This document shows positions 2,087 through 48,879 of a DNA stretch of 64,000 nt, in pieces. The notes beneath the pieces were generated by a model, which saw only the letters and a list, made by a program, of their open reading frames with translations, made no database searches and was not told where the DNA came from. Position 1 is the stretch's first letter. Each line of letters begins with the position of its first letter. Both the position numbers and the translations under genes were made by a program. The DNA is from Centroscyllium fabricii. Its lineage: Eukaryota. The stretch is from the NCBI GenBank assembly GCA_051313645.2, contig JBNRSN020000008.1, forward strand, positions 247,194,001-247,258,000. The letters are read 5' to 3'.

Positions 2087-2163
2087 TCAATCCAGGGACA
2101 TAATGATCATGTTCTGACTGTTGCGGCGGTCTGGAGACAACGTTTTTTCCAATGTTTCTTTAC
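2087..2163 (-). CDS. Putative terminal cytoplasmic exon of the Ig receptor (GKETLEKTLSPDRRNSQNMIIMSLD*)
   Basis: Acceptor tttgtttaatatacAG at 2165-2164; phase 1 is compatible with the TM exon; TGA at 2089-2087; no tyrosine motif. Confidence 0.5.
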
Positions 2164-2419
2164 CTGTATATTAAACAAACATATAATGTTATCAGTTTGA
2201 CTTAGTAGAATTGATGTTGATTGATGCAAGTAGTATCCCTAACTAGTGGAACTTCTGTAACATTGCTGAATGGGAAATCTGAGGTCAGGGACTCTGCACG
2301 AATACTCCCTATCAGCTCCCTGCCCACCGGTCCCTCTGGAGAAGGATAATGATAAATGCCATGGGTAACACCACATTGGCTATTGCAATGAATACAGGGG
2401 AGGCCCACAAAATACGTAA

Positions 2420-3480
2420 CACGATAGTAATAAACATGTAATTGGGAAATACATTTCTATATATTTAAATAGAGTTATGAGGAGGCACATTTAGGTCGGA
2501 AGCATCAGGAGGCTCTTTACTCCATTGAAAATAAGAGTCTAAATGGAATGGAGGAGCAGTGGAATCTGGCGCTACTTTTATACAAATTATTAAAAGCAAC
2601 GAAGTAAATAAATAAGCCCATAATCAGCAATTTCAGTAATGTGGTTCATTTCTACAAGGATATAATTGTAACACGCGGAAGTCGTGCTCATATTGTTTGC
2701 ACTTTGGTTACAACACACTTGCAAACTGTGAACAGTCCTGGTCTCCATATTACAAAATGCAACTAGAGATATGGAGAAGATTCAAAAAAGTTTCAGTAGA
2801 ATCAATCGAGAATTAAGAGGTTACACATACCAAGAATTATTCAACAGGCGCTGCGTCATTTCTCTAGAAAAGAAAAGACTGCGTGTTGAGAAATGTTGCT
2901 AATATTGTATTGTCCCTGTGTTAAACCGCACTTAGAATACCGTGAACAGTTCTGCTTTCCATATTATTAAAAGGATATAGAGGTACGGAGAAGTGCAAAA
3001 ATAATTACCAGGATGATTTCAGAAAAGGAGTGTTGCAACTATCAAGAATGATTGAACGGGCAGCAAATCTTTTCTGTAGAAGGGAGAAGACTAGAGTTTG
3101 ACCTGATATAGAGGACTTTGAAATTAGGAAATCGTCGATAGGTTCTCCGCAGAGAAAAGGTTTGAACTTATGGCTGAGACCCGAACTATGGAAATGAATA
3201 TAAATATTCACTGATAAATCCAATAAGTAAATCAGGAGAAACATCTTAATCAAGAGCGTGGCAACATGTGGAAATCGCAAACGTAACTAGTGGTTAAGAC
3301 GATCATTATGGATGCATTTACAGAGACGCTAGATAAACGCATAATGGAGTCAGGCCTAGAAGGATGTGCTGGTGGGGTTGATGAAGAATGGTGGGGTGAA
3401 GTTCATGTGGAGCATATGCACCAGTACTTATCTGTTGGGCTGACTGTACTGATTCGGTGCTTTCAATATTGTGTAATACC
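2420..3480 (+). mobile_element. Old degenerate CR1 LINE 3' fragments (partly duplicated)
   Basis: Decayed '[14 protein letters not shown]' coding motif present twice (~2710 and ~2930), followed by CR1 3'-like sequence. Confidence 0.55.
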
Positions 3481-3560
3481 AAGTGACTGGATAGGTGGTG
3501 TTATCTGATAGGCTATGTATTAGGTAGGACTATGCTGGTATGCCCTTACCAGAGAATAAT

Positions 3561-3991
3561 ACATAGACATAGACATAGAAACTAGGAGCAAGAGTAGGCC
3601 ATTCGGCCCTTCGAGCCTGCTCCGCCATTCAATGAGATCATGGCTGATCATCCAAACCCAGTACCCCGACCCTGCCCCTGCCCTCTCCCCATATCCTTCG
3701 AACCCTACCATATCCCTCGATCCATATCGAGCCTGCACTGACACATAACCCACCCTATCCCCGTAACCCCACATATATTCAATCCCCCTAACACTAAGGG
3801 TCAATTTATCATGGCCAATCAACCTAACCCGCACATCTTTGGACTGTGGGAGGAAACCGGAGCACCCGGAGGAAACCCTCGCAGACACGGGGAGAATGTG
3901 CAAACTCCACACAGATAGTCACCTGAGGCTGGATTTGAACCCGGGTCTCCAGTGCTGTGAGAAAACAGTGCTAACCACTGTGCCACCGTGC
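3561..3991 (-). mobile_element. HE1-type V-SINE, second copy
   Basis: Closely similar to 1160-1591 along its whole length. Confidence 0.85.
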
Positions 3992-4035
3992 ATTTTAGAG
4001 AAATCTACCATTTGCAATTCTATTTGAAATCTTAC

Positions 4036-4143
4036 CTTCGTGCGGGTTAACATTCACGAAATGCTCAACAATGAATATCATCATCACGATGACCACCAAG
4101 GCACTGAGGCAGAGCCGGACTAAGAGCACCGTGAGATATTGTT
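4036..4143 (-). CDS. Transmembrane exon of the Ig receptor (EQYLTVLLVRLCLSALVVIVMMIFIVEHFVNVNPHE)
   Basis: 108 bp, acceptor cttcttccacAG, donor G|GTAAG, phase 1-1; hydrophobic helix with Arg (CGG at 4117-4115) and a C-terminal Glu. Confidence 0.85.
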
Positions 4144-4339
4144 CTGTGGAAGAAGCAGCAAATATTGATAGTTCGCAGTGTGAACGTCTTTATTAGTAAC
4201 TAATGCTTCCAAATTCCTCATGAAAATGGAGGTAAGCCCTAGCGTTCTTATTTAAGCAGATACATTGATAACACCCTCTTGCATTTCATCTGCTGCAACA
4301 CGAAACATACAGTAATGACATTACTACGGTAGCAAAATA

Positions 4340-4520
4340 CGGCAGATGCTGGAAATCCAATATAACAATAAAAAATGCTGGACAAATTCAACAGTTCAGG
4401 CAACATACATGAAGAGAGAAATAAGAGTATCTTGCTAAATGACCCGACCCGAACCGTTGAGTCTTCCTTCTCTCTTCACAGGTGTTGCCTGAACTGTTGA
4501 TTTTATCCAGCATTGTCTGT
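4340..4520. repeat. Palindromic Penelope-terminus-derived hairpin element
   Basis: Imperfect inverted arms ~4374-4420 and ~4468-4514 (aatgctgga..caggcaaca..gaagagagaa / ttctctcttc..tgttgcctg..tccagcatt). Confidence 0.55.
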
Positions 4521-5254
4521 TGGTATTACAGTAATGACACGTTATCTTGAAGGTAATACTTGTAGGTTTTCAACAGTTTTTCTTTCGAAATGCTTAACGT
4601 GTTCCTGTAGAACTTATTTGCTAGAAGTGATGAATGAAGGGGAAGCATTTACGACGTCCTTAAACAAGGTAATTAAAGCAATTACTGATGTTATTTGTCT
4701 GCAGTGAATCTTGTTGAAATTTACAGCTTTGTCAATGTTAATTTGGGTTGATTCGGTTCTCACTTATTGGCGCTCTTGTTGTAACATTGCACACATATGT
4801 TACCGTTAGAGTACTGGGGGCAGCAAAGAGGGAATTAACGCTGTTAACTTGTTTTGCGGTGCAGTGGATGTCAGCTAATCCATGAATTGGATTACCTTGG
4901 CTATGCCAGTGTTGTTATCTCCAGTCAGTTTGAATAGGCTGTTTGTGAGGCAAATGCCAAATATTGTCAACTGTGGGCCTTGGTCAGAACATTCTACTCT
5001 GTCCACAGACGCCGACTGAAAATTTGTATATTATAAACAGCAAATATTTATTTTTGCTTTTTGCTTACTATCATAAAGTAACCTTTTGTTAAAGTCGGCA
5101 ACATCGATATTTATTTTCTCGGATTCCCTAGAGGGTAACCTTGGACTATTAAGGAATCGTTCAGAAACTAAAAGCGAAATTAATGAATAAACTTTTAAGC
5201 AATGTTGGAGAAGTAACACCACTCAATGTTTAGCACTTTAGTTCTGCCATCAGT

Positions 5255-6190
5255 CATAGAGTCACAGATTTATACAGCATTTAAAGAGTCCTTTCGCCCC
5301 ATCGTGTCTGCGCCGTACATCAAGCCCTGTCTATTCTAATCCCATCTTCCTGTATTTGGTCCGTTGCCTTGAATGCTATGCCGTTTCAAGTGCTCGTCTC
5401 AATGCTTCTTGAATGTTGCGAGGTTTCCTGCCTCTGCCACCCTTTCAGGCAGTGAGTTCCAGATTCCATCCACAGCCTGTGTGAAAATGCTCTCCCTAAA
5501 ATCACCTCTAAACCTCATGCCCTTTACCTTGAATCTATGCACCCTTGTTATTGAACCCACTACAAAAGTAAAATGTTCCTTTCTATTTTCCCGATCTGTT
5601 CCCCTTCAGAAATTTGGACACCTCAATCAGGTCCCCCCTCAGCCTTCTCTGCTCCAAGAAAAACAACCCCAGCCTGTCCAGTCTTGCTTCATAGCTGAAG
5701 CGCTCCAGCCCAGGTAACATCCTGGTGAATCTCCTCTGCACCCTCTGCAAAGCTATCACATCCTTCCTATAGTTTGGTGACCAGAACAGCACACAGTATT
5801 CCAGCTGTGGCCTTACCAGCGTTTGTAGAGGTCCATCATAACCTCCATATTCTTAAATGCTGTGCACCAGCGAATGAAAGCAAGTATCCCATATACATTT
5901 TTATCCACCTTATCCACCTGTTCTGCTGCCTTCAGTGATCTATGTTGATGCACACCAAGTTCCCTCTGAACCGCTGTCTTTCCTAGCGTCTTACCATTCA
6001 TTGTGTATTCCCTTGCCTTGTTAGACATTACATAATGCCTGAGTTCACAATTTTTAAGCTTAAATTCAATTTGCCACTGTTCCACCCGTCTGATCAATCT
6101 ATCTATATCGTCCTGCAGACTTCGGCTTCCCTCCTCGCTATTTACCACCCCTCCAAGTTTCGTGTCATCTGCGAACTTATTGGTCATTTC
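5255..6190 (-). mobile_element. CR1 LINE, 5'-truncated (RT C-terminus plus 3' UTR)
   Basis: ORF track shows KFADDTKLGG and LQRVQRRFTRMLPGL..LEQRRLRGDLIEV; the CR1 tail repeat is at the left end. Confidence 0.9.
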
Positions 6191-6490
6191 ATTACTTTCA
6201 TACCCAACTCATAAAGTTAGGTAATTAGCTAAAACTTTATGGAATAAATGTCAATGTATTTTCGGGCACAGGCGCAAAAGAGGGCGTGACACATTCTCCG
6301 CATATTAAGTCCGATATGACGGGATGTAAGGCTGGCGTCCTATGAGAAGACGTCCCAGAAGAACGTTGAGACCTGGATGTCATTTCCACGCCAGTTTGAA
6401 TCCATAAACTGAACAACTGATGAAGACTGACAATGACACAAAAAGACCTTGTGCTGATCCCCGAACAGAGAATCTGTGAATCTCACTCAC

Positions 6491-6787
6491 CTCCGACAGT
6501 TACATGTACAGGGTCACTCCGAGCCGAAGTTAGCCGCTTTCCCCTCACATCCGCTTCATACAGGCAGGTGTAATTTCCTCCTTCAGCGCGATCAACATTC
6601 CTGATGGTGAACGTGACAGAATTAAATCCTGCCGCAGCAGGCTGGACATCCGAGTAATTCGTGTCTCCGTGCCTGTACAAGTAAAATGTGATGCCAGGAA
6701 ACTCCCGGGGGATTGTGCAGTTAAACGTGACTTCTCCACCCTTCAGAACAACATTGGAGTCCACAGACATTTTTGCTTTGGGTAGAC
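6491..6787 (-). CDS. Ig exon D6 (membrane-proximal C2-type domain), intact
   Basis: 297 bp, AG/GT, phase 1-1; LPKAKMSV..GGEVTFNC..FYLYRHG..EGGNYTCLY..SARSDPVHVTV, an LRC-type Ig pattern. Confidence 0.9.
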
Positions 6788-7329
6788 CTGTAATTCGAAT
6801 GGAACAGGCAGTGACCATCGAATCAAAATGCAATACAGAATTATTATTGTGAACTTATATGTGAATGGCCTGGACTTGTGTACACAGGGCATAATTACAA
6901 AGTTTGGAGAAGGTGCGACTGTCGAAAATATATTGCAAGAAGTCCAACACCGGCAACTCCACATCATGGAAACTGTATTGAGCAGTGAGGAGGATATCAA
7001 CACACATCAAGAGGACATGATTCTGCTTTTCCCATTTACACTTTGTCTAAACCTATCGTATGTATCTTTCCTGCTCCCATACCATCTCCGTTTCCATTGT
7101 ACAATCAGACCATTTGTTATTTGAACTTTCCTGCCTTCCAAATAGATCTTCCCTTTTTATCTTTCCCCGTTTCGCTGCATTTCCATTTCCGTAAAGTCCG
7201 TGATACCTCTATTTTTTTCAAGTTCTCAGGAAAGGTCATCGATGTGAAACGTTAACACTCTTTCTCTCTCTTGTGGTGCTTCCTGACATGCTGAGTTTTC
7301 CTAGCATGTCCGCTTTTAAAATCAGGAGT

Positions 7330-7893
7330 ACAAAGACAGACTGGTGAAAATGGGGAAAACATGGCAGATGAAACTTCACACGGAGAAGTGTGATATGACA
7401 CATTTTGGGAAGAAATAATGAGCTGGGGCTGTTTAAACGAAATGGTACAACTTTATACGTGGTACAGAATCAGACGGCCCTCGCGTGCACAGGCACAAGT
7501 CTTTGAAGGTGGCGGGAGATGCGAAGGAGAGAATTAAAGAAAATCTTTATCAAACAGAGGCTGAGATAATACATTCAGTCAAGATATGCTAAAGCTGTAG
7601 AAATCACTTGTTAGTGGCCATGTAGGAATACTGTGTCCCAAATTAAGACATTACACTTTAGGAAGTATTTCAATACCTTACATACGGTGTAGAGGAGATG
7701 TAACATAATTGTTATAAGGAGGAGGAATTTCAGTTATATTGAGAGACTGCAGAAGATGTGATTTGTCTCCACAAAGCAGAAAAGTTTGACTAGTGATTTG
7801 ATAAAGGTGATAAATATCATGATGGATTTTGATAGAGTAAGTAAGGAGAGACGTTTACCAGTGAAAGAGAGGTAGGTAACCAGGGGACGCAGG
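7330..7893 (+). mobile_element. Old degenerate CR1 fragment
   Basis: Decayed WQMKF..EKC..HFGR and SYxERL motifs. Confidence 0.6.
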
Positions 7894-9520
7894 TCATAAA
7901 GTCATAGAGTAATACAGCACAGAAAGAGGCCCTTCAGCCCATCGCGTCCGTGCCGGCCATCAATCCCAGTATATACTAGTCCCATTTTCCCGCATTTGGT
8001 CCGTTGCCTTGTATGCTGTGGCATTTCAAGTGCTCATCCAAATGCTTTTTGAATGATGTGAGGGTTCCCACCTCTACCACCCTCTCAGGCAATGAGTTCC
8101 AGACCGAACCACTCTCTGGGTGAAAAAGTTCTTCCTCACATCCGCACGATACCTCCTGCTCCTTACTCTGACATTATGCCCACTAGTTATTGACTCCTCA
8201 ACCAAGGGAAAAAGTTCCAATCCATCCAGCTTATCTATTCCCCTCATAATTCTGTACCCAACCAGTTTCCCCCTCAGCCTCCTCTGCTCCAAGGAAATAA
8301 CCCCAGCCTGTCCAGTCTCTCTTCATACCTGAAGCTCCCCAGCCCAGACAGAATCTTGGTGTATCTCCTCTGCACCCTCTCCAAAGCTATTACATTCCTC
8401 CTTTAGTGTGGCGACCAGAACTGCACACAGTAATCCAGCTGTGGCCTTACCAGCGTTGTGTACAGCTCCATCATAACCTCCCTGCTCTTATATTCTATAA
8501 TGGGCAAGTATCCCATATTGCTTTTTAACCACCTTATCCACCTCTCCTGCTGCCTTCAGGGACCTATGTACCTGCACACCAAGATTCCTCTGATCCTCTG
8601 CATTCCCTAGCGTCCTTCCATTCATGGTGTATTCCCTTGCCATGTTAGACCTACCGAAATGCATCACCTCACACTTTTCTGGATTAAATCCCATTTGCCA
8701 CTGTTCCGCCCATCTGACCAACTCGTCTATGTCGTCCTGCATGTTGCGGATTTCCTCCTCAGTATTTACCAACCCCCCAACTTTTGTGTCATCTGAAAAC
8801 TTACAGATCATGCCTTTTACATTAATATCTAAATCGTTAATATATACGACAAACAGCAAGGGACTCAACAACGATCCCTGCGGTACCCCACTGGACACAG
8901 GCTTCCAGTCACAAAAACAACCTTCGACCATCACCCTCTACCTCCTGTCACTTAGCCAGTTTTGGATCCACTGTGCCAAGGTGCCCTGGATCCCATGTTA
9001 CCTTACCTTCTTGACCAGTCTCCTATGCAGCACCTGATCAAAAGTCTTACTAAAATCCATGTATGCCACGTCCAGTGCACGACCCTCATCCACACCCCTG
9101 GTCATTACTTCAAATAATTCAATCAATTTGGTCAGACACGATCTTCCCTTGACGAAGCCATGCTGACTATCCTTAATTAATCCTTGCCTCTCCAAGTGGA
9201 GACTACTTTTGTCCCTCACGATTCTTTCTAGTAATTTCCCCACGACTGATGTCAGGCTCACCGGCCTGTAATTCCCTGGTTTCTCCCAACTACCTTTCTT
9301 GAACAATGGCACTGCATGGGCCATTCTCCAGTCCTCCAGCACATCCCCTGTGGCCTGCAAATTTGTGTCAGAGACCCTGCAATCTCTTCCTTAGCCTCAC
9401 CCAGCAGCCTGGGATACATCTCGTCAGGGCCTGGAGACTTATTCACTTTTATGCCTGCTAAAACTGCTAGTGCCTCCTCCCTGTCAACACTAATATGATC
9501 AAGTGTATCGCATCCCTCCT
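7894..9520 (-). mobile_element. CR1 LINE RT region, frameshifted
   Basis: ORFs KSPGPDEMYPRLL, GNYRPVSLTSVVGK, SQHGFVKGRSCLT, SGVPQGS, KFSDDTK; CR1 3' tail present. Confidence 0.92.
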
Positions 9521-10320
9521 GTCTTGTTTCTGTTTGTAGAACTCAAATTTCCTCTCAACCTTATCCGCTCTATGGTGAACAACCCCTGCTTCTCTGATCT
9601 ATCCACCTAACTGAGGTCCGTCATCTGTGGAATCGGCTTCGTGAATCTGCTCTGCCCCTCTCTGAGGCCTTACACCCTTCCTAAAGTGCGGTGCACAGAA
9701 TTAGACCGCATGCTCCAGTTGAGACTGAACAAGTGTTGTACACAATTTCATTAAAATATCCTGGCTTTTTTACATTTTGTCGCTATTTAAGCAGTTCAGG
9801 ATTCCTATTGATTTTATAACAGGTTTGTCAACCTCCCCTGCTGCCTTCTGCGATGTGTGCAGGTTTCCCCGTTTACACACACCATTTATGATTGTAACAT
9901 TTAATTTTTATTGAGCTTCCTAACACATTCTATCATGTCGCCCTCTATTACCTTAAAATATTTGGTATTTTTCAGCATCTGTGGTAAAATAAATGGAAAG
10001 ATCAACGGAAATGGATTTCTGCAGGTTCCTGTGCCATGAAAGGCTGGTAACTGAATTAACGGAATCAAACAGAAATGAGACAGAAAATAAATCAGTTAGG
10101 AATCTTGTTCCAAAACCTGGGCTTACCGCAGAAATTCCCATCGTTGATACCAGGAGTAGTGCTGGTTTCAAATTCACATTTCTGCCAATTTCATGGAGCC
10201 AGAACCTGATTAAATGGCCTGAATAACTCCGTGAAACGTATGGATTTGCATTTCACATAAAGGAGTTCAGTGTTGCTGGGCTCTAGGATGTGCGCTTCGC
10301 TGGCATGTCTGGCGTTTACT

Positions 10321-10780
10321 GGGTTAGGATTTGCGGTAGGTTTCGGGTTCGTGTTAGGGTTAGGGTTCGTGTTAGGGTTAGGGTTAGGTTTCGTGTTAGG
10401 GTTCGGATTAGGTTTCGGGTTAAGGTACGGGTTCGGGTTAAGGTTCGGGTTAGGGTTCGGGTTTGGGTTAGGGTTCGTGTTAGGGTTCGGATTCATGTTA
10501 GGGTTCGGGTTCGGGTTCGGGTTCCGGTTAGGGTTCGGGTTAGTGTTCGGGTAAGGGTTCGGGTTCGGGGTAGGGTTCGTGTTAGGGTTCTGGTTAGGGT
10601 TCGGGTTAGTGTTCGGTTAGGGTTAGGGTTCGGGTTATGGTTAGGTTTTGGGCGCGGGTTTGGGATAGGGTTCATGTTAGGGTTAGGATTAGGGTTAGGG
10701 TTCGTGTTAAGATTAGGGTTAGGGTTAGGTTTCGGGTTCGGGTTCGGGTTCGGGTTAGGGTTATGATTAGGGTTAGGGTT
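10321..10780 (+). repeat. Intronic interstitial telomere-like hexamer array (mixed TTAGGG/TTCGGG)
   Basis: ~460 bp of GGGTTA/GGGTTC hexamers with variant units. Confidence 0.9.
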
Positions 10781-11279
10781 GGAAATGCTCTTGAGTAGAT
10801 GATGGTCGGCCTTCTGCTTGAACAGATTTTTGCTACCCTAATGCTGTTCGGTTTGGACTTCCAGCTTTTTGAGCGAGCGACAATGAAGGTTCGCCAGATA
10901 TATTTCCAAGTCAATATGGCGAGTGAGTCGAGCCGGAACTAGGAGATGATGCTATTCACGTGCGTCTACTGCCCCCATCATGTTTGATTATGGAGGTCGA
11001 GGGGTTTCGAGCTGTCGACGGAATGCAATCCATTAAGTTATATGAAAACCTAAAATTTACTGAAGTGAAAATATATCACGTATCAGGATGTTTTTGTTAA
11101 TCTCGTTACACAGTTTCGGTTATCTGACGGAGATTCTGTAATCTAACAAGACCAGCCAGTCTGGTGGTGCCTCGTGAGGTGAATAGACACTAAGTGGAGT
11201 TAAAATTCTGGCAGGATGAAGCCATTTGACATTAAATATTCCACGGTGGTTGTTCCAGATATTTAGGGTGCAAAATTGG

Positions 11280-12045
11280 AAATCAGCGTTATATAGAGTT
11301 TGCTGAGGTTTTTAAGAGCAGAGTAGTTAGGGGGAACCAGTTGATGAGGTGCAGTGGATTTTCAGAAGGCATTCGATAATGTGCCACACACGAGGTTACT
11401 GAACAATATAAGGGCTCAGGGGATTGAGGGTAATATATTAGCCTGGATTGAGGATTGTTTCACGGACAGAAAACAGAGAGTAGGAATAAACTGGTGATTT
11501 TCGGTTTGGCAGGCTGTAACTACTGGGGTAACGTAGAATCAGTGCCTGAGCCTCAGTTATTCACAATCTACATCAATGATTTGGATGCGGGGACCAACTT
11601 TATCATATCACAGCTTAGGAAGCTGGTGCAACATAATTTGTGAGGAGGATGCAAGGAAGGCTTCAAGGTGATATAGTCAATCAAGGTGATTCGGTAAGAA
11701 CATGGCAAATGCAATAAAATGTGGAGATATATGCGTCTAGAACCAGGGACCACAGTCTCAGATTAAGCGGTCGGCCATTTAGAAATGAGATGAGGATACA
11801 TTTCTCCACTGAGAGGATGGTGAATCTTTCGAACTCGGGAACCCAGAGGGCTGTGAAGCCTCAGCTGTTAAGTACAAGACAGAGATTGATAGAGTTTTGA
11901 TCTTTAAGGAAATCAAGGGCTATGTGATTAGTACAGGGAAGGGGAGATTCTGCACAAGATTGTGTATGAACTTACTGAATGGCGGAGCAGACTTCAAGGG
12001 CCTAATGGCCTACTCCTAATCCTGTGTCTTACAGTCTTATGTTCT
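11280..12045 (+). mobile_element. Degenerate CR1 fragment with 3' tail
   Basis: DFQKAFD, PQLFTIYINDLD remnants and AATGGCCTACTCCT tail. Confidence 0.75.
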
Positions 12046-12247
12046 TTAAACAAATCATGTTGTATTGCAGGGCCCAATGTTAAAGCGCTCCTGTCAAGAG
12101 CTTATTAAAAGATTCCAAACCATTCGGTCTTCTTCCACTTTCCTAATGTTAAACCATTGATGTTTTCCAATGATTAAAGCATGAATTTATAAAAATACCA
12201 AAAGCTTTAAAAAATCACCCACTATTCCTCTGATCTGTGCCACTCAC

Positions 12248-12541
12248 CTGCGACAGTAACGCTCACAGACTCGCTCCGATGAGATTCTAACCGCCTTCCG
12301 CTGAGGGAGGTTCCATATCCGCACTGGTACCGCCCTCCCTGTTCTTTAATGGTAACCGGGATTTTTACAATGTTGTCCTTTGTGACAAGTAGATAGGATC
12401 GCAGATATTGATTATCTTTGTAAAATTAGAATGTTTTATAGCGATAATCTCCGGTCACAGTGCAGGAAATGGTGACTGTCTCTCCCACCACATACACCCC
12501 ACCCGGTTGATCAAGAGTCATCACTGGAGTTGTTGTCGGAT
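12248..12541 (-). pseudogene. Ig exon D5, in-frame nonsense codon
   Basis: 294 bp, AG/GT intact, paralogous to D4; TAA at 12428-12426 where D4 has Tyr (TAT). Confidence 0.88.
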
Positions 12542-13089
12542 CTATGGTGAAATATATAGAAAGCACGATGAGAAATGGGGCTCTGGATTTTTATGTAAAG
12601 TGCAAGGTGCTGAACACACTGATGATTGTCTGGTGTTAAAGCGCAGTTTCACATCGGATACAGAGATTCCGCAATAGGGGAGTTCGAGGTTTGTTTATAA
12701 AGAAGAAAGACTTGCATTTCTCTAGCGCCGTTCATGAAGCGGGGACGTCCCGAAGCGCTTTACAGCCAATTTACTCATTTTGAAGAATGGCCACTTTTGG
12801 AATGTGGGAAATTAAATGGTGGAGCCAAAGAACCTAAATCAGCTCCAGGTCTCTGACGGACGTCCGTTATTAGGCCGGAGATTATCCTCTGGGGTACGAC
12901 CGGAAAAAAGAAAAGGTTGCTTTGGAAAGCACAATGCTGCTAACGTAGCCCAGATGACGACGAGGTAACCGAGAGTGAAAGTGTCCATTATTCCCAGAAC
13001 AGTAGGTAGAAAACCTTCGACAACGGAAGATAATGAACAGCCAAACTGAGCGAGGCTTTGAGGGACACACATTACAAATATTTGACCTG

Positions 13090-13710
13090 GTTCTGTGAGC
13101 ACGCAATTATTTTTATCATTACCGTTGTGGTTGTCGATGGCGTGGCCGGCAACTGCACTGAATCCATAGTTTCCACTTCAGAATATATTTGTTGGATTTC
13201 AAATGGATAGTTAGCCTTTCCAGTGTGGTCACCGTGCAGAACAATAGAGTGAGTTTAAAGATTTGGACCTGGCGACGATGAAAGGACAGCGATATATGCC
13301 CATGTCAGGATGGCAAGTGACTTTGTGGGGAATTTGGGAGTGCTGGTGTTCCCATACGCCTGCTGCCCTTGTCCTTCCTGGTTGGCGAGTTCGCGGTTTG
13401 GGAGGTGCTGCCGAAGAAGCCTCGGTGACATGCTGCAGTGCTTCCTGTAGATGGTACACACTGCAGTCACGGTGCGCTGGTGGTGGACAGAGTGAATATA
13501 TAATATGGTGCTTGAGGTGCCAATCAAGCGATCTTCTTTGTCCTGGATGGTGACAAGTTACCTGAGTTGGATCTTCTCTCACCCGAGCATGTGGAATGTA
13601 TTCAGTCACACACCTGGCCTGTGCAAGTAGAAGGTGGAATGGCTATATGGAGTCAGAAGGTGAGACACTCGCAGCCGAATCCCCTGCCTCAGACCCACTT
13701 TAGTAGCCAC
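13090..13710 (-). mobile_element. Non-LTR retrotransposon 3' fragment (CR1/L2-group); related pieces at ~16870-17470 and ~20540-20850
   Basis: IHSVHHQRTVTAVCTIYRKHCSMSPRLLRQHLP resembles a LINE ORF2 C-terminus; clade not determined. Confidence 0.55.
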
Positions 13711-13919
13711 AATGTTAATGTCCCAGAAATTGCAGTGGAGCCTTCGTGCGGTTGCAGTACCTGCTCAAAGCACTTGAACTGCCCATAATTAGTTCTGCTT
13801 TTTTTCACTCAGAAATTGCAGTTAGCCCAGATTGTCAGAGCTCCGTGCGAGCTTCATGGGCATCTGAAGGGCGTAATTAGTGCGAGATGGCTTTTGAGAG
13901 CACCTGATTGGCAGGGAGC

Positions 13920-15500
13920 CAATCAGTGGAACCAATTCTCCGTTCAAAACTTCCACTGAGAAATCTGTGCAAGTTCTGAAAGTAGAGATTGCCCAAAAGA
14001 CATCTAAACTCAAAAATATATTTTTTTAAACACCACATTTTTTAACATTACCCCAACTAACACAAATAACCTATTTTAAAGAAAAAATAAACATTTATAG
14101 AAAGATTTTTCAATTTCCAACAGGTCTAAAAAAATAGTTACCAGTCTGTAAAGTTATCAACAATTAAAAACCTGAAAGAAACAACAATTAAAATCAATAA
14201 AATACACACTTACCAGTTAAGAACGGATACTTACGACTGCTTTTTCGCAGCCAAGAATCTCCTGGACTTGGTCCGTAGAAAAAGTTAAAAATATACCCGA
14301 ATTACTGGACGCAACACGCTTTTCGCTGCCTCCTGCGCTGGCCCTCGCAGGAACTCCAACCCCCCCGCTGGCCGGCATAGGAAAACCCGAAGCAGCGCCA
14401 CCGGCTGCTTCCTGCGGGTTTCAGCTCTGGTGTGCTAGCACGAAAGCTTAAACCCGATATGGGCAGACTGGAATTTATGGCCCAATATAAAGGTGAATTT
14501 GGAGTGGATGTTGTTGCTATGCGCTTGCTGCCCTTGTCCTTCTGGCTGGGAGAGGTCCCGTGTAAGCGAAATGTTACCGAAATGCAGAGAGAGATATGGA
14601 AACCCACAATTTAATTAGATTAAAATATCGCGCATAACAGAATCAATTTGAAAATGTCGGCACGCAGATTCTGTTGTCTGACAGAAACCTTCAATCTGTT
14701 ATGGCCACTTCATCAGTGGAACCAATTCTCCGTTCAAAACTTCCACTGAGAAATCTGTGCAAGTTCTGAAAGGAGAGATTGGCCAAAAGACATCTAAACT
14801 CAAAAATAAAATTTTAAGAACACCACATTTTTTTTAACATTACCCCAACAAATACAAATAACCTATTTTAAAGAAACAATAAAAATTTACAGAAATATTT
14901 TTCAACTTCCAACAGATCTAAAAAAATAGTTACCTCTCTTTAAAGTTATCAGCAATTACAAACCTGAAAAAAACAACAATTAAAATCAATAAAATACACA
15001 CTTACCAGATAAAAACGGATACTTACACTGCATTTTCGCAGCCTAGAATCTCCTGGATTTGGTCCGTAGAAAAAGATAAAAATATACCCGAATTACTGGA
15101 CGCAACCAGCTATTCGCTGCTTCCTGCGCTGACCCTCGCAGGAACTCCAACCCCCCCCCCCCCTGGCCGGCGTAGGAAAACCCGAAGCAGCGCAACCGGA
15201 TGCTTCCAGAGGGTTTCAGCTCTGGTGCGCTCGCACCAAAGCTTAAACCCGATATAGGCAGACTGCAATTTATGGCCCAATATAACGATGAATGTGGAGT
15301 GGATGTTGTTGCTATGCGCCTGCTGCACCTATCCTTCTGGCTGGTGGAGGTCCCGTGTAAGTGAAATGTTATGGAAATGCAGAGAGAGATATGGAAACCC
15401 GCAATTTAATTAGATTAAAATATCGCGCATAACAGAATCAATATGAAAATGTCGGATCGCGGGTTATGTACCCTGACAGAGAAACCTGCATTGTTTTATG
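13920..15500. repeat. Intronic tandem duplication, 2 x ~790 bp
   Basis: atcagtggaaccaattctccgttcaaaacttccactgagaaatctgtgcaag begins at 13922 and again at 14712; the copies align to their ends. Confidence 0.9.
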
Positions 15501-15995
15501 GCCAGTCCGTCTGGAGAGCTTTTTGAGATGGCACTACACACATTCGAGTTCACTCCCTGGCACCGTGCTGTCATTTTGGCAACAAACGTTGATTGTTCAA
15601 ACATATAAGGGATCATTTTCTCCCAGGCAGATCGTTGAAACAAGTGTTCACGATTCCATATTTTACACATAATTAAATGAAAAACGTTATCAGGCGGGGC
15701 ATAAAACGGGCGTCCCAATCTCTGTCGCCCGTTTTGCGCTACCGCCCGTTACAAATTTCACTCCTTATCGCCAGTAATGCCCGTTGTCGGTAATGGATTC
15801 ACATCAAATGAATGTCGGGTCCAGAGTTACATGAATCCTGTCAAAAGTTGATCAACATGATCAAAAACCGTTCACTTATCTCCTCATTCCAAATATTAAA
15901 CCACTGATCTTATTCAAATGATTAAAGCATGATTTATAAAAAATACCAAGAGCTTGAACAAATCCCACACTATTCCTCTGATCTCTGCCACTCAC

Positions 15996-16289
15996 CTGCT
16001 ACAGTGATCGTCACAAACTCGCTCCGATGGGATTCTAACCTCCTTCCGCTGACGGAGGTTTTATATCGGCATTGGTACCGCCCTCCCTGGCCTTTAATGG
16101 TAACCGGGATTGTTCCAATATTGTCCTTTCTGACAATTTGATGGGATTGCAGATATTGATTATTTTTGTAAAAATAGAAGAATTTATCGTGATAATCTCC
16201 GGTCACAGTGCAGGTAATGATGACTGTCTCTCCTACTACATAAACCCCACTCGGTTGATCAAGAGTTATCTCTGGCGTTGTTAGAGGAT
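15996..16289 (-). CDS. Ig exon D4, intact
   Basis: 294 bp, ccacAG/GTGAG, phase 1-1; DPLTTPEITLDQPSGVYVVGETVIITC..FYFYK..QGGRYQCRY..SHRSEFVTITV. Confidence 0.9.
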
Positions 16290-18607
16290 CTGTGGTATAA
16301 TAAATGGAAAGTACAATTAGAAATGGATTTGTGGATTTTCATGTCAAGTGCAAGGTTGTGAACTCTCTGATGATTGGGCGATATTGAAGCGCACTTTCTC
16401 CTCGGATACAGAGATTCCACAATAGGGGAGTTCGGGCTTTGATTAGAAAGAAAGAAAGACTTGCATTTCTCTAGCGCCTTTCATGATCTTGGGACATCCC
16501 AAAGCGCTTTACAGCCAATTTAGTCATTTTGAAGTGGAGTCGCTGTTGCAATGTGGAAAATCAAATGGCGGAGCCACATAACCTAAATTAGCGCCAGTTC
16601 TCCATCCAATATCCAGCTTCAGGCCGGAGATTTTAGTCTAGGATACGAGAGGAACAAAGAACCATTTGCTTTGGAAAGCCCAGTGCTCCTAATTTAGCCC
16701 AAGTGAAGATGCGATCTGAGAGAATGAAAGTATCCCTTAGACCCTCACCGCGACCGGTCGCTTTTCAAGTAGGAAACCTCCGCCAGTGGAAGGCAGAGGG
16801 CACCCAATCTAAGCGGGGCTTTGACAGGCAAACATTTCGAATAATTGAGCCTTCTTTGTGAGCACGAAATTATTGTTTTCATTATCACTGTAATAGTGGC
16901 TGGCATGGCCAGCAACGACTGCCCATCCTTAGGTTTCCTTTCGAAAGTGCTTGTTGGCTTTCTAATTGAACTACAGCGAATCCGTTGGTGTTAAAATGCA
17001 CAACAATGATTTGGACCTAGTGACAATGAAGGAACAACGATATATAACCAATTCAGGATGGTGTGTGACCTGGAGAGGTTCTGCTGGTGGTGGTGTTACA
17101 TGCGCCGGCAGCCCCTCTCATTCTAGTGGTAGAGGGCGCTTGTTTGAGAGGTGCTGCTGAGAAAGTCTTGGTGAGTGTCTGCATTGCATGATGGCGATGG
17201 TGCACACTGCAGCCCCGGTGCACCGGTGGTGGAGTGAGTGAATTCTTTAAGGTGGTGGACGGGGAGCCAATCCATCTGCCTGCTTTGTCCTGAATAGTGT
17301 CAAGCTTCCAGCCTTGTAGCCGGTCTCATCCAGGCAATTGGAGACTATTGATCCACATTCCTGACAAGTATCATGTAGATTTGGGCAGGATATTGTGGCA
17401 TCGCAAGGTGTGTCATTCGCCGCAGTATTCAACACCTCCGACATTCTCCAGTAGGAGGGGAATTGAAGTCGATATTTTCGGAGGCAAATGTTAAGTGATG
17501 CATTTGGTGGATAATTTTCAGTTAATGGTTTGAAGGTGAATATGGAGGTGACGCTGTCCCCATGTGTCTGCTGCTCTTGTGCTTCTGGGTGGTGGAGCTC
17601 TTGTGTTTGAGAAGTGCTGCCGAAATGCAATGCAGAGAGATATGGAAACCCACAAGATAATTACATTCAAATATCGTGCATTACAAGATCTTATTGCAAA
17701 TCTCGTCAGACAGATTCTATTCTCTGATAGAGAACCTGTAATGTTTCACGGCCAGTCACCCTGGCGAGCTCCGTGAGGTGCGGCTACATTCAGTGAATTT
17801 AAATCTCTGGCGCCCAGCCTTCATTGTGAAACTGTATTCTTATATTTCGAACTTGCAGGGAATAAATATTTTCCCCGCTTGATCCTTGAAATAGGTGGTC
17901 GCAATTTGCTTTTGCACAAATAGGGCCAGAAACTCGCGCAGATAGTGTGAATGTTCCCGTGGGATCATGTGGACATTGGGGAGGCAATCGAAGCAAAGAA
18001 TGCTCCATTCATAAGATTGACAGACAGGATCGGTCAAACTTTTGAAAAAACAAGAGCGGCAAAAACACAGTAAACGTTAAAATAATTTTTTAAAAAACAT
18101 CAATTTTTTAAAAGTTACTATAACTAACTAGCTATTTTAAACAAAAATAAACGTTTTGAAAAATATTTTAATTTTTGAACTGCCCTAAAAAACTATTTAC
18201 ATGTCTATAAAGTATTTAAAAAAATTAAAACCTTTGAAACTAAATACTTAAATTCAATAAAACAGAGACTTTCCTGAAGAAATCGGCTCCTTGCGCTGAA
18301 GCTGATGACCCCGCCTCCACTTTCTACCGAATTGCAGGTATCCTACGCATGCGCGTGAAATAGCGTCCATCTGCAATTCGGAGGGCTGCGCGCGTGAGTT
18401 CCCGCTCTGTACTCGCGCGGTGCGGCCCCAAAATTCTGGGCCATAACTAAATGGGAAACAAAATCAGGCGGGGCCTAAATGGAGCCGCAAATCGCTATCT
18501 TCTATTCGCTGCTACCGCAGGAGATACGGTTCATTCTCGTGAATTCTCATTACGTGACAGACAAGCAATGATATCCGATATTCTTACAGAAAAACAATGA
18601 ATCTTAC

Positions 18608-19072
18608 CCACTACCATCACCTCCATGGAATCACTTCGCCCTGAGGTTATGTGCCGCTCTGCCATTGTTGACTTATAAACACAGGAGTAATTTGCTGTGC
18701 CGGTCTCCACACTTGCAAGAAGTCGCACAACACCAGATTATAGTCCAACGGTTTTATTTTAAATCACAAGCTTTCCATAAAACCGTTGGACTATAATCTG
18801 GTGTTGTGTGACTTCTTGCATTTGTCCACCCCAGTCCAACACCGGCACCTCCTCATTATAGGTCTCCACACTGTCCGTGATGTCAAAGGTGACCTCGGAT
18901 TGCCATGATTTGGCTGTGACCATTTTGATTGGATTATTTTGCCCTCCTCTGTACAAATAGAAACTGCTCCCTGAATATGGAGACAGGGCTCCACAGGAAA
19001 CTCTGACCAGCTCCCCTCTCACAAATACTTTATCCAGACGGTTAAGTGATATTGACGGTTTGTGAGGATAAG
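18608..19072 (-). pseudogene. Ig exon D3, interrupted by a Penelope-derived insertion
   Basis: YPHKPSISL..GELVRVSC..FYLYRGG..SVET / SVETGTANYSCVY..SGRSDSMEVMV. Removing 159 bp restores a 306-bp phase 1-1 exon. Confidence 0.88.
18714..18860. mobile_element. Palindromic Penelope pLTR fragment with 12-bp target duplication
   Basis: GGTCTCCACACT at 18702-18713 and 18861-18872; 44-bp inverted arms 18714-18757 and 18777-18820; same sequence family as 29950-30040. Confidence 0.85.
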
Positions 19073-19744
19073 CTATGAGGATAACAAGGAAACACAATAA
19101 TGTTAAACCAATATCCTGCCGGGCGGCAACGGTTCTGCCGCCCGCATTTCAACCTGGTGATTTTACTCACCTTCAAGTCAAACTAAACTAAATTCCGAAA
19201 GGTTGAGACACAATCAGCCGACCCGATTTTAAGATGTAATAAAGTAAGTTAAGGGTAAAATCGGGTGGCGTGTACATTTTGCGTCCGGTCCGAAACCACA
19301 TCTTTCCCGCTTGGTGGACTTGGTTGCAATTGCCCACCATCAGCTGTAAGCTGTGAGCTGGTTGGAGCCAAGACAATTCACCTGCCCACCGGCCAGGTAT
19401 CTGCTGAGCGTGTATGTTTAAAATCACACCCAATGGAATCGGAAATCGGAAAAACATGCTGCCGATTCAATGTGATATTTTGTGTTCTGCCAACTGAGAC
19501 AAGTTTCACGTGCAATATATCAGGATTGCTGTTGCTGACAGTAGATGCGCAGCGGGTGAATTCAGGGCCCAGTGTTACAGGCATACTGTCAAGCTTTAAG
19601 CTGTGAGATCAAAGGCCTTTCGCTTTTTGTTCTTTCTACTAATATTAAACGTTTCATTTTGTTATTGTGAATAACACATGGATTTTTGAAAATATCAAGC
19701 ACGTTGAATAGACATATTAGCAAACGCTGCCACCTGTCACTCAC

Positions 19745-20038
19745 CTACTATAGTCGCTGTAATAGCCCCGCTCAGCTGGGAAAATATATGCCTTTGGTTG
19801 AAGGAGATTCCATATTGGCATCGGTAGCGCCCTCCCTGGTTACCATGTGTAATCGGGAATGTTGCAATGTTGCTCTTTGTTGCTATTGGGCTAGAGGACA
19901 GCATTTGGCCATCTCTGTTAAAGCGAAAGGTTTTATCACGATTATCTCCAGTCACATTGCAGGTAATGGTGACCGTCTCTCCTTCTACATACACCCCACT
20001 CCTTTGATCAAGGGATATCACTGGCGTTGTTAGCGGTT
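19745..20038 (-). CDS. Ig exon D2, intact
   Basis: 294 bp, ctcAG/GTGAG, phase 1-1; PLTTPVISLDQRSGVYVEGETVTITC..QGGRYRCQY..SQLSGAITATIV. Confidence 0.9.
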
Positions 20039-21351
20039 CTGAGGTAAAATTGACGGAAAGAACAATAAAAAATGGATCTACGGTTCTTCATGTCATTTGT
20101 TAACTCAATAGTGATTGTGATACACTGGTTGGAAGTGATTTCATTGGCGACTGACATTCCAGAAACGTGGAGTTCGGGACTTGGTTAAAACCGAGACAAA
20201 AGCCTTGGATTAATATAGCGCCTTTAAGGAACTGAGCATCTCCTAAATCGCCCCACAGCCAATGATGCACTTTGGAGGTCAAGTCACAGCTGTAATGTAG
20301 GAAATCAAATGGCCGAGCCAAATAAAATAAATCAGCTTCGGGTCTCTTTCCAAAGTCAAATGTTCAGCCCCAAATGTTACTCTGGGATACAAGCGGAACA
20401 AGGAAATTGCATAATTTGAAATCAGTATTTCTGCTAATTTAGCGAAGGTGAACATGTGATTCAGACAATTGTACCTCAACCTTAACTCTTCAGATTCGCA
20501 CTTCAATCAAAGTAGTTGCTCTGCTGAGCCCAAAATATTTGTCAATCATTCCAGATGTGGGCATTGCTGGCACGTCCGGCATTTGTTGGCTAAATCCAGT
20601 TGCATTTGTTAAAAGGGAGATTTGTCTTCTTCTTGAACCGACGCAATCGCTGTGGTGAAGGTGCTCCCACAGTGCTGCCGCAGGGATTTCCTGGGTTTTA
20701 ATCCAGTGAACAATGTAGGAACCGCGATATATTTCCAAGTCGCAATGTTGTGAGACTTGGAGGGGAGCCCGGAGGTGATGGTATTCCCATTCAGCTGATG
20801 CGCTTGTCTTCTGGGTCGTGGAGGTCGCTGATTTGGAATTGTGTAAATATCCTCCGGCACTACATTGAGGGCCCAAGGCCCTGTACAGTGCTGTATGTTC
20901 TATGTTCTATGTTCTAAGTCTATCACTGTTCTCCGCATTGCTCACTATATTTCCGAGTTTCCTCTGTTCTGCCAAATTTGAAACTTATGATCTATATAAC
21001 CAAGTCCCGGTCAATACTATATGTCAGAAATCTATTCCCTCTTGAATGTTGCTATTGTATAGGTTTCCACCACCCTTCCAGGCAGCGCATTCCAGATGCA
21101 ACATCCCGCCACGTTAAACAGTTTTCTTTATTTCCTCACTCGAGTTTTGGCAATTATCTTAAATCTGTGTCCTTTGCTTCAGTTTTTTAAATTTAATCAT
21201 TCGATATCCCTTATAATTCTGAAAATTTATATTGAATTTTCCCTTATTCTTTTCAGCTATCAGTGTACAAAACCACCGTATCTAGTCTCTACGGATAACT
21301 AAAACACTTCCCTGTATTAATATTGCAAAAACGCTGCCACATCGCACTCAC

Positions 21352-21636
21352 CTGTTACTGTTACTCGCGCCGAGTCACTCAGTGAGGACCAGGTCCATTG
21401 CTTATTGACATTGTATCCATACTTGCACTGGTAATCTCCTTGCTCATATCTGCTTTTTGTTGCAACGAAATGAACTCTGCTGGTAGTGGAAACCGGCAGT
21501 TCGGCCCCATCTTTATAAAAGTTATAATTGCTACCCGGGGAATTTTCATCGCCATTGCAGGTAATCGTGATGCTCTCCCCGGGCAAATACACGCCAGTCA
21601 CTTCATTCAGGGTAATTTCAGGTTTCAGTGGAATTT
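21352..21636 (-). CDS. Ig exon D1, intact
   Basis: 285 bp, cgtAG/GTGAG, phase 1-1; IPLKPEITL..GESITITC..YNFYKDG..QGDYQCKY..SSLSDSARVTVT. Confidence 0.9.
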
Positions 21637-21954
21637 CTACGGTTAAAACAATGACAGTGTCCGTCAATGAATATATTCCAGTAAGACACGTTTCAGTCTG
21701 TGTAGTAAAGAGAACGGTAAGTGCTCCGTAGAGTGCTTGAAGCAGATACATTGCTGCCCCTAAGCTGAGGATAAATATACACAGGTCGTGTTAGTGTGAA
21801 GTATAATGTGCATTATGAAAATCGGTGTGCACCAGCAGGGGCAAATTTTTTCTTTCTGTGCTATCAATTTCTTGTAATTCTATAAAATCAACACCCCATT
21901 GAGCGCTTCTAAATGACAAACATTGAAACACTAAAGCTGACAATATTCTTCATA

Positions 21955-26266: not shown

Positions 26267-26869
26267 TACTGCATGTAACTTCACAACACGATATGTTACA
26301 GCAAAGAATTGCAATTATATAATATCAGGTACCTTTATTTAGCAGTTTGAAAATTAGTAGCTCAATTTCATTTTTTTAAGCAAAAGCGTCGACACTAACC
26401 TTGAGTAACGATTCTGCGACCCACAAAAACAACTAAAAGAGAAAATATCATTCAGTTATTGGAACAGAAACAACTTTATACGATGAATAAATAGACTGAC
26501 TGCCGCACATTGTTTTATCCACATTTCACAGTGTGATTGTGTTGCTGAAATTCTGGCTCAGTTTCGTTGAACTCCCTATCCAGAACATGACCACATTATG
26601 TAGGCAGACATCAAATACAGAGAGTGCAGGATTGACACCACAAGTTGTGTGAGAAAGTGCTTCCTGGTTTCACCCCAGATGATCTGGCGCCAGTTTTAGT
26701 ATCTTGCCCCCTTTTTACGGATTCACTCAGAATAAGTGAAGAAATTCTACCGTGATGATTTTTTGCATAAAATTCCAATAAACCATGGTAACAAAATGTG
26801 CCCTTGGCCCTAATGACAATTTTTAAAAAAAATTAGAGATGCTTTTTGACGCTGGATGAAGACGTCACT

Positions 26870-28300: not shown

Positions 28301-29608
28301 GTCATAGAGTCATAGAGTAATACAGCACAGAAGGAGGCCCTTCGGCCCATCGCGTCCGTGCCGCCCATCATTCCCAGTCTACTCTAACACCTATTCCCGC
28401 ATTTGGTCCGTAGCCTTGTATGCCTTGGCACTTCTAGTGATCATCCAAATACCTCTTGAACTTTGTGAGTGTTCCCGCCTCTACCCCCGTTTCAGGCAGT
28501 GAGTTCCAGACTCCAACTACCCTCTGGGTGAAAAAGCACATCCTCACATCCCCACGATACCTCCTGCCCCTTACTCTGAAATTATTCCCCTAGTTATTGA
28601 CCCCTTTACCAAGGGAAAATGTTGCACTCAATTCACCCTGTCTATTCTGCACATAATTTTGTACACCTCAATCAGGTCCCCCCTCAGCCTCCTCTGCTCC
28701 AAGGAAACAACTCCAGCCTATCCAGTCTCTCTTCATAGCTGAAGCTCTCCAGACCAGGCAGCATCCTGGAGAATCTCCACGGCAACCTCTTCAAAGCTAT
28801 TACACCCTTCCTATAGTGTGGCGACCAGAACTGCACACAGTAATCCAGCTGTGGTCTTACCAGCGTTCTGCACGGCTCTATCATAACCTCCCTGCAATTA
28901 TATTCTGTACCTCGGCTAATGAAGGCAAGTATCCCATATGTCTTTTTAACCACCATATCCACCTCTTCTGTTGCCTTCAGGTACCTATGTAACTGCACAC
29001 CAAGTTCCCTCGTATCCTCTGTCTTCCCTAGATTCCTACCATTCATGGTGTATTCCCTTGACATTTTAGACCTACCAAATTGCATCAACTCACACCCTTC
29101 AGGATTAACTTCCATTTGCCAGTGTTCCGCGCATCTGACAAACTCATCTATATCATCCTGCATGCTGCGGATTACCTCCTCGCTATTTACCAACCCACCA
29201 ACTTTTGTGCCATCTGCAAACTTACTGATCCTGCCTTTTACTTTCATATCAAAATCATTAATATTGACTACAAAAAGAAGGGACCCAACACCAATTCCTG
29301 CTGTTCCCCACTGGACACCGGCTTCCAGTCACACAACCAAACTTCGACCATCACCCTCTGGATCCTGTCATAGACTATAACCAGGTGTTGAGTGACTTCT
29401 TACAATTTTTCACCCAGTCCAACACCGGCACCTCCACATTCTGTCACTAATCCAGCTTTGGAAACACTGTGCCAAGGTACCCTGGATCCCATCGGCTCTT
29501 AAATTCTTGAACAGTCCCCTATGCGGGACCTTGTCAAAAGCCTTACTAAAATCCATGTATACAACATCCACTGCACTACCCTCATCTACACACCTGGTCA
29601 CTCCTTCA
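28301..29608 (-). mobile_element. CR1 LINE RT region with a small internal Penelope fragment (~29370-29440)
   Basis: ORFs [47 protein letters not shown]. Confidence 0.9.
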
Positions 29609-29699: not shown

Positions 29700-30045
29700 T
29701 TCTTTGTTTTTAATCATTCTGTGTGTTTTCACACAGACACCAGTCTACAGCATTTGACCCTTTGAGACGATACATCATTGATCTCAGACTGGTGCCTGAT
29801 TAATATGCTAAGATATGTTAAAACACATTTGTCTGCTCTGTATGTCTGCTGAAGTGTGATGTTGGAGAGATTAGCCTGCTGTCTCCCTTGTATATATGCT
29901 GTCTTTAAATGAACTTCTCTTTCACGTGAGGAAGGAGCAGCGCTCCGAAAGCTTGTGATTTCAAATAAAACTGTTGGACTATTACCTGGTGTTGTGTGAC
30001 TTCTTGCATTTGCCCACCCCAGTCCAACACTGGCACATCCACATC
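29700..30045 (+). mobile_element. Penelope-like element terminus with a minimal hammerhead ribozyme motif (core mutated)
   Basis: TCAC-GTGAGGA-A-GGAGC-AGC-GCTCC-GAAA-GCTT-GTGA at 29922-29958, then AATAAA. Confidence 0.7.
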
Positions 30046-41491: not shown

Positions 41492-42135
41492 TGACAGGTT
41501 AGGTTTTCTTTCACCCACAGTTGTACGATAAACTCGAGACACCACACACGAGAAGTTGAGTTCAACTTGTTTATTCGCCAGCTGGCTCAGGTAATTTACA
41601 AGCATCTACCAAGTCTGATGACTAGGCTCAGCGAGTAAAGAACTGCGCTGAACAGTCAAAAGGTTCGATCTTTTATTCTTAAAAACCACAAACAGCTTAT
41701 TTTAGTTAAACCAATCACTGACTTACATACAGAAGTAGGGCAGAGGATTCAAAGAAATATTTACAGTTTCTGCAATAACAAAGGCTGTGAGACAAGGGGA
41801 ATATAGTGTGGTTAGCTGCAGTCGCCTAACCGTTATCTTTTGTTCGCCTGGAGCAGCTATCTCCACACGAGGTGTGACTTTTTTGAGCCTGCATCAGCCA
41901 TCCTGAAACGCTTATCTCTATACTCGGGCGCGCCATCTAGCTTGTGGTGAACTAGACTGTCGAGTCAGAGCTTGACCTATTTTCTGCAACTGCAGAGCAA
42001 GCAGTTTTGGTCTTAAAGCAGAAGTAAGGTATTTGTACAAAATGCAATTTATTCTAGTTTCTCCCAAAGCTCCTATCTTCTATCTAGGGATCATCTCGGG
42101 TCTGTCCCGGCCTCGGGAGATATTTTACTCTGTCA
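41492..42135 (-). repeat. ERV 3' LTR (PPT at ~42136-42147)
   Basis: TGACAG..CTGTCA termini; adjacent ttccccccttt is the polypurine tract on the minus strand. Confidence 0.97.
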
Positions 42136-42435
42136 TTCCCCCCTTTTGTCATTACCATGACAATAATTTACCTCAAAACACGGACTTATGAGAAGTGGTT
42201 TATTGGTCCTACCAGAGTTTATTTCTGATGTCCGGTGCCTTATAGCCCCCGAAGCCTGGACTAAGTGATATACAGAGTCGACAGGCCGGCTTGTTGAGAC
42301 CACTCTCTTCCCTAGTCCCATTGTCTCTAGGTTATACCCCCCTTTTATTAACTGTCTTTTAGGTCTCTAAACTAATTTGGTCTTGAGGCCCTGGTGACGT
42401 GTTGTTTTTAGGACCTATGGGGAGGGGGTAGTTCG

Positions 42436-43612: not shown

Positions 43613-43694
43613 TTCTTCGGTTTTATGATCCTCCCGTTATTGCTACGGTCTGAAAGAATACAAAAACTAACAAAAGGGTTATTGCATCTTCTTT

Positions 43695-48168: not shown

Positions 48169-48170
48169 AA

Positions 48171-48814: not shown

Positions 48815-48879
48815 CTTTCTCCCCATATCCCTCGATCCCTATCGAGCCTGCACCGACACATATCCCACCCTATCCCCGT

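Follow-up and report, generated by a model that had tools for sequence, protein, structure and literature searches.

The stretch of Centroscyllium fabricii DNA analysed here (GenBank assembly GCA_051313645.2, contig JBNRSN020000008.1, positions 247,194,001 to 247,258,000 of the forward strand; 64,000 nucleotides in all, hereafter the window) contains, on its minus strand, a receptor gene whose exons follow one another in the order D1-D2-D3-D4-D5-D6, transmembrane (TM) segment and tail, D1 to D6 being immunoglobulin (Ig) domains. [quoted passage not shown] Both lesions are absent from the DNA of a close relative or divergent haplotype, and the family comprises members with an arginine-led TM segment as well as members with a tail resembling the immunoreceptor tyrosine-based inhibitory motif (ITIM). 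Most likely, no full receptor is made from this copy.

Exons and lesions of the receptor gene

The gene consists of the following features, listed from its 5' end and numbered by position in the window:
26400-26432, minus strand: predicted second signal-peptide mini-exon of 33 bp, donor GTTAGT; best match to the relatives' segment
21352-21636, minus strand: D1 Ig exon, open; Pfam Ig_2, 42 bits; 61% identical to Heptranchias P0007
19745-20038, minus strand: D2 Ig exon, open; Pfam Ig_3, 41 bits
18608-19072, minus strand: D3 Ig exon, interrupted; in-frame TAA at 18761-18759
18714-18860, strand not assigned: inserted high-copy repeat containing an inverted repeat of 49 nt; the 12-bp target site is duplicated at its two ends (18702-18713 and 18861-18872)
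15996-16289, minus strand: D4 Ig exon, open; Pfam Ig_2, 35 bits
12248-12541, minus strand: D5 Ig exon, duplicate of D4; in-frame TAA at 12428-12426
6491-6787, minus strand: D6 membrane-proximal Ig exon, open, LRC-like; Pfam Ig_C19orf38, 33.7 bits, over the cut-off; 70% identical to Heptranchias P0001
4036-4143, minus strand: TM exon of 108 bp, Arg codon at 4117-4115; 25-residue match of 44% identity with the TM segment of horn shark P0164
2087-2163, minus strand: short exon predicted to encode the cytoplasmic tail, with stop codon TGA and no Tyr; placed by splice site and frame

Each of the exons D1-D6 and the TM exon has AG/GT ends, phase 1-1 and a length divisible by 3. Every Ig domain holds two cysteines and occupies one exon, a trait of activating LRC receptors. 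In the Pfam scan, with D5 outside it, D1, D2, D4 and D6 were above the Ig cut-offs and the 5' part of D3 was weak; the Ig_2 and Ig_3 matches point to domains of the C2 class. A tblastn search of the window with four of the domains found no extra Ig exons. The 33-bp mini-exon is the top one of 435 AG-33nt-GT candidates on both strands when these are scored against the segment of 11 relatives (7.4 vs 2.8 for the next). Two scans of the window did not find a first signal exon; the candidates at 58618 and 58502 appear to be chance matches, and the segments repeated at about 27, 38.6, 53 and 61 kb contain no signal-like frame. No host gene flanking the receptor gene was recognised in the window parts inspected.

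A preliminary description of this DNA had claimed six Ig exons. All six are present with their AG/GT ends; they do not form an open frame, because D3 and D5 carry in-frame stops, and this copy therefore has no intact open reading frame. That description overlooked the D3 insertion and the D5 stop, as well as the mini-exon, which lies beyond the part it had covered. The insertion within D3 measures 159 bp, corresponding to an element of 147 bp plus one copy of the 12-bp target site, and brings in the TAA at 18761-18759. Copies related to it are found elsewhere in the window, at 29373-29440 and 29947-30044, and read depth over it reaches several hundred thousand vs 30-75 on the neighbouring single-copy DNA; it is presumably similar to the termini of Penelope-like elements of sharks. 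When all exons are joined translation stops in D3, and when D3 is skipped it stops in D5.

The age of the lesions can be judged from four DNA runs (two samples, one study) that were aligned to positions 11900-21760 of the window. In all four, the insertion site is empty: a contig joins 18701 to 18861 and skips 159 bases, with the 12 letters fitting on either side. Furthermore, position 12428 is G at all contig depth in each of the four runs, and with it the first base of the D5 stop is gone; several contigs overlie this position, hence some of them are paralogs. Since the long contigs are about 96-98% alike to the window, the DNA must come from a close relative or represent a divergent haplotype. 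The empty site and the lack of the stop base in four of four runs make it likely that both lesions are recent. The relative's copy is not thereby shown to be fully intact, as the aligned region excludes D6, the TM exon and the tail, and the comparison holds 500 differences and 42 indels beyond those listed here. An assembly error is possible for the single-base D5 stop and unlikely for the D3 insertion with its duplicated target site.

With D3 and D5 both skipped, the mini-exon, D1, D2, D4, D6, TM and tail join into an open frame of 461 codons, so that the copy is not necessarily dead. A four-domain activating receptor, D1-D2-D4-D6-TM, might thus still be produced by skipping of the damaged exons: phase is 1-1 throughout, the exons to be retained are open with canonical splice sites, and relatives do differ in domain number (P0004 has one domain fewer than P0005). 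We regard this as unlikely. The damaged D3 and D5 exons retain canonical AG/GT ends, so that constitutive skipping of both is not to be expected, two independent lesions are consistent with loss of selection, and the scans of the window yielded no first signal exon.

Several structural details of the locus may be added. D4 and D5 are 86% identical in nucleotide sequence and were duplicated along with their introns (12089-13616 vs 15836-17363, 75% alike). Between them lies a tandemly doubled 790-bp repeat (13922-14707 vs 14712-15504), at which the contigs of all four DNA runs skip about 797 bases. The intron between D5 and D6 contains a degenerate telomere-like array of GGGTTA/GGGTTC units (10321-10780).

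Transmembrane segments and the elasmobranch family

The TM exon at 4143-4036, already recognised in the preliminary description as a 108-bp exon bearing an arginine, is borne out as the more hydrophobic of the two TM-like exon sites in the 64 kb (both strands) and the sole one on the minus strand, lying in phase with D6 and 2.3 kb downstream of it. The tail without tyrosine was likewise found as described, the predicted exon at 2163-2087 having neither Tyr nor ITIM. Counted from the Arg, which is near the outer end, the TM segment has Tyr at -7, Leu at -3 and Glu at +17. An outer-end Arg with an acidic inner-end residue is the trait of activating LRC receptors, for which the published motif is NxxR (PMC6557307). 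The Arg-to-Glu spacing of 17 is common to the window, horn shark P0164 and the lizard and turtle NxxR receptors P0117, P0119 and P0149, and in the 25 residues aligned between the window and P0164 the Arg, Cys and Glu match.

Other features of this segment count against an LRC assignment. Asn at -3 occurs in none of seven shark Arg-TMs, the window having Leu there, vs six of seven tetrapod ones; the window segment keeps the Arg and the inner Glu of the LRC pattern and not the Asn of NxxR. On a profile of the seven tetrapod Arg-TMs, the window segment ranks 24th or 33rd among 145 TM segments, and P0164 first or second; moreover, identity between the window segment and five of the other six shark Arg-TMs does not exceed 29%. 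With Asn absent and its rank on the tetrapod profile low, the Arg TM does not assign the gene to a family, and suggests, from its sequence, an adaptor-coupled receptor.

The TM exon has no PDB matches, and a full ortholog with the window's D6 and TM was not found, the aimed search giving two of 8000 scored candidates, namely P0164 and one weak teleost match. The D6-to-TM junction is accordingly a prediction, and an alternative acceptor at 4119 likewise gives an open frame. It could be argued on these grounds that the Arg exon is not the TM of this gene, or recruits no adaptor, and that the gene is a decayed relic without signalling meaning. The position and phase of the exon, the lack of any other such minus-strand site in the window and the match of the P0164 segment at Arg, Cys and Glu make this very improbable, and the exon is treated below as the membrane anchor of a predicted activating receptor.

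The relatives of the window gene were collected as 36 elasmobranch cluster representatives among 38 matches (Heptranchias, Mustelus, Cetorhinus, Carcharodon, Scyliorhinus, Pristis and Leucoraja), to which horn shark P0164 was added out of the top 150 matches of a profile search; these 37 representatives are gene models and include some isoforms. Their domain types are the same as those of the window, with identity of up to 71%. Fourteen have an ITIM-like tail, six an Arg-led TM, nine an uncharged TM without ITIM, and in eight no TM was detected. Four species account for the six Arg-led forms, namely those of Heptranchias, Mustelus, Carcharodon and Heterodontus. In all six gene models, the Arg TM comes after a D6-type domain, the junction proposed previously for the window gene, and no Tyr is found more than 20 residues past the Arg. 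Pro-Ile-Arg together with Glu at +18 is present in five of them, and P0164 has its Glu at +17, so that sharks seem to have two subtypes of Arg-TM sequence. The D3-type domain is uninterrupted in P0020, P0021, P0023 and P0035, at 48-54% identity to D3 of the window. ITIM-tailed paralogs, which the preliminary description had proposed to look for, were seen in other sharks, and none in the 64-kb window. Its assignment of the gene to an activating paired-receptor system is supported for the family, with both classes represented, and is not supported for this copy as an intact six-domain receptor.

The relatives' proteins are already public in NCBI under best-hit names, such as KIR3DL1, FCRL5, IGSF1-like and DM43-like, and many are called 'Fc receptor-like protein 5'. 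Very long proteins with 13-25 related Ig domains were also seen in the rays Pristis and Narcine (P0045, P0048 and P0053), the last of which begins with SRCR-like repeats.

Intact, the gene would specify a type I membrane protein whose six C2-type Ig domains would bind a ligand. The TM arginine, in the outer leaflet, would pair with the aspartate of a dimeric adaptor of FcR-gamma or CD3-zeta type, bearing an ITAM (tyrosine-based activation motif of immunoreceptors), in the manner of LILRA, Fc-alpha-RI, NKp46, GPVI and OSCAR; such pairing is proposed because the short tail has no signalling motif. A CD3-zeta chain is present in sharks. The opposing signal would be delivered by the ITIM-tailed paralogs with their near-identical domain types. 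This putative mechanism is modelled on the literature on LRC and XFL receptors (PMC6557307, PMC2413239). Published observations that speak against it are that the FcR-gamma chain was not found in sharks in a 2014 survey (PMC4016189), and that the charged TM residue is dispensable for adaptor binding in catfish LITR 2.6b (PMC4810170).

Lineage and age of the family

By sequence, D6 and D3 look LRC-like, and D1, D2, D4 and D5 score nearer to FcR/FCRL yet bear an LRC motif. The best PDB matches of D6 are LILRB1/B2, and D6-type domains favour the amniote LRC profile over the XFL/LITR-like one in 37 of 37 cases, as do D3-type domains in five of five. The motif YxCxY is present in all six window domains, in 44 of 50 amniote LRC-type domains and in none of 74 XFL/LITR-like domains, and D6 and D3 combine it with FxLxR. 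In a tree built from 113 domains over 97 columns (of 156 rows, the 43 dropped were those of P0045, P0048, P0053 and P0091 and one long branch), a branch with support 97/97 separates shark, LRC and turtle, frog and teleost relatives from XFL, LITR-like and CEACAM domains; the references of tree and profiles were fetched with a shark profile, the labels 'LRC' and 'LITR-like' were assigned by us from NCBI names and TM motifs, and the tree holds one XFL, with mammalian LILR, KIR, FcR and FCRL left out. A quick tree of all 156 rows gives the same split with support 96. The top Atlas clusters for P0164 are KIR, TARM1, HIDE1 and IGSF1.

The remaining comparisons are less favourable to an LRC affinity. 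The best PDB matches are FCRL5 and domain 1 of Fc-epsilon-RI-alpha for D1, and FCRL5 and FCRL4 for D2. Of 84 domains of the D2/D4/D5 type, 80 score higher on the XFL/LITR-like profile and four on the LRC profile. The shark domains, those of the window included, all lie outside the amniote LRC clade (100/99). Approximately unbiased (AU) tests reject none of three groupings: D1/D2/D4/D5 with XFL/LITR-like domains (p 0.22), D6 with those domains (p 0.13) and D6 with LRC (p 0.455). Of the LRC-type domains claimed in the preliminary description, D6 is upheld by its LILRB1/B2 matches, and D1 and D2 are not. D4 has weak PDB matches to VEGFR2 and then FCRL5, the 5' part of D3 has one weak match, PirB and FCRL5 are tied for the profile of the D4 and D6 family, strand C is FcR-like in four of the six window domains, and the top profile of D1-D5 is an unnamed turtle and frog group with the NCBI names A1BG-like or IGSF1-like. 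The closest non-shark relatives (P0057, P0088, P0063, P0059 and P0077, from turtle, frog and teleost) may represent an undescribed LRC-related group.

Alternatively, the family could be part of the FCRL/LITR lineage, with its Arg TM used in the manner of Xenopus XFL and the LRC-like appearance of D3 and D6 owed to shared ancestry or convergence. In its favour are the PDB matches of D1 and D2 and the second-best match of D4, the profile preference of the D2/D4/D5 type, FCGR3 as the second-ranked Atlas cluster for D4, the NCBI name given to many relatives, and the fact that XFLs bear an Arg TM and bind FcR-gamma (PMC2413239). We nevertheless find it improbable: YxCxY occurs in 82 of 84 shark D2/D4/D5-type domains, the shark domains stand on the LRC side of the 97/97 branch, the PDB scores of FCRL5 are sums across nine weak domains, and the predicted second signal-peptide exon has 33 bp, vs 21 bp in FCRL genes (PMC2413239). 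The shark family and the LRC presumably share a common descent.

According to the 2014 survey, LRC-type homologs with C2 domains only, FCRLs and the FcR-gamma chain have their earliest occurrence in bony fish (PMC4016189). A 2021 review states that cartilaginous fish have yielded no Fc receptors (PMC7916673), and in a 2019 study the NxxR TM was followed back to amphibians, with the age of the LRC left undecided (PMC6557307). It is likely that sharks have an LRC-related paired-receptor family, where the 2014 survey found none. No description of the shark family was found in the literature searched, where a term search of the available text of PMC4536121 and PMC10247546 gave nothing on sharks; a 2021 Immunogenetics paper on LRC-like regions of fish may already cover it. 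The sequences suggest that paired activating and inhibitory receptors are older than bony fishes, and because the shark family has members of activating and inhibitory type, the question of LRC age moves to the jawed-vertebrate ancestor. The family also supplies candidates for ligand tests with IgM, IgNAR, class I molecules of the MHC (major histocompatibility complex) and collagen, for which the window copy, being broken, is the wrong one.

More speculatively, a large family of paired receptors kept by sharks may stand at the base of the LRC; its domains would be of intermediate type, between FcR/FCRL and LRC, and its Arg-TMs would fall into two subtypes able to function with no Asn. The switch of Arg and ITAM adaptor and its ITIM counterpart would then date to the jawed-vertebrate ancestor, the family would offer candidates for the missing shark receptors for Fc and MHC class I, and activating null alleles would segregate as in human KIR and LILR. 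We put this forward as a tentative picture, and rather doubt that it will hold in full.

Genomic surroundings and known systems compared

Elsewhere in the window, an endogenous retrovirus-like element occupies 41492-48824 on the minus strand and is young, as its 654-bp long terminal repeats are 99.5% identical. RNase H and integrase domains are encoded by an open frame of it at 43971-45338, its gag-like and env-like pieces look broken or shortened, and it contains a 43-bp tandem array (47401-47908). Retrotransposon frames are found at 32.4-36.6 kb, 37171-38547 and 62.2-64 kb, with reverse transcriptase (RT) and RNase H at 33448-34356, RT at 37171-37800 and a similar element starting at about 62.2 kb. 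Old segmental duplicates that are 64-81% alike lie upstream of the receptor gene (about 26.7-27.5, 38.6-41.4, 52.1-54.4 and 56.7-62.2 kb); they share a GC-box-like word and are possibly decayed promoter regions of paralogs. A 98-bp tandem repeat with 7.3 copies spans 57700-58414.

Compared with the activating LRC receptors (LILRA, PIR-A, Fc-alpha-RI, NKp46, GPVI, OSCAR, TARM1, IGSF1 and their amphibian and bird relatives), the window gene is alike in its C2 Ig exons, one per domain, in the outer-end TM Arg with an acidic inner residue at spacing 17 and Tyr at -7, in the short Tyr-free tail accompanied by ITIM-tailed paralogs in other sharks, and in the FxLxR and YxCxY motifs of D6 and D3. It differs from them in lacking Asn at -3 of the TM, in the place of the shark domains outside the amniote LRC clade, with the FcR-like strand C of four of the six, and in being broken in this copy. 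The Arg TM is shared with XFL, and D1, D2 and D4 resemble FCRL/FcR in having FCRL5, FCRL4 or Fc-epsilon-RI among their best PDB matches; unlike XFL/LITR-like domains those of the window have YxCxY, the D6 type favours LRC throughout, and the predicted mini-exon differs in length from that of FCRL. Teleost LITR likewise form a paired family that mixes FcR-like and KIR/LILR-like domains (PMC2413239, PMC4810170). The TM of stimulatory LITR 2.6b, however, has Lys (PMC4810170) where the window has Arg, and the teleost proteins that we label LITR-like are across the 97/97 branch. Among annotated elasmobranch proteins, where none was seen to unite the order D1-D2-D3-D4-D5-D6 with the TM of the window, Heptranchias XP_067836598.1 and Heterodontus XP_067878191.1 belong to the same family, have the same domain types at no more than 71% identity, and present both TM classes.

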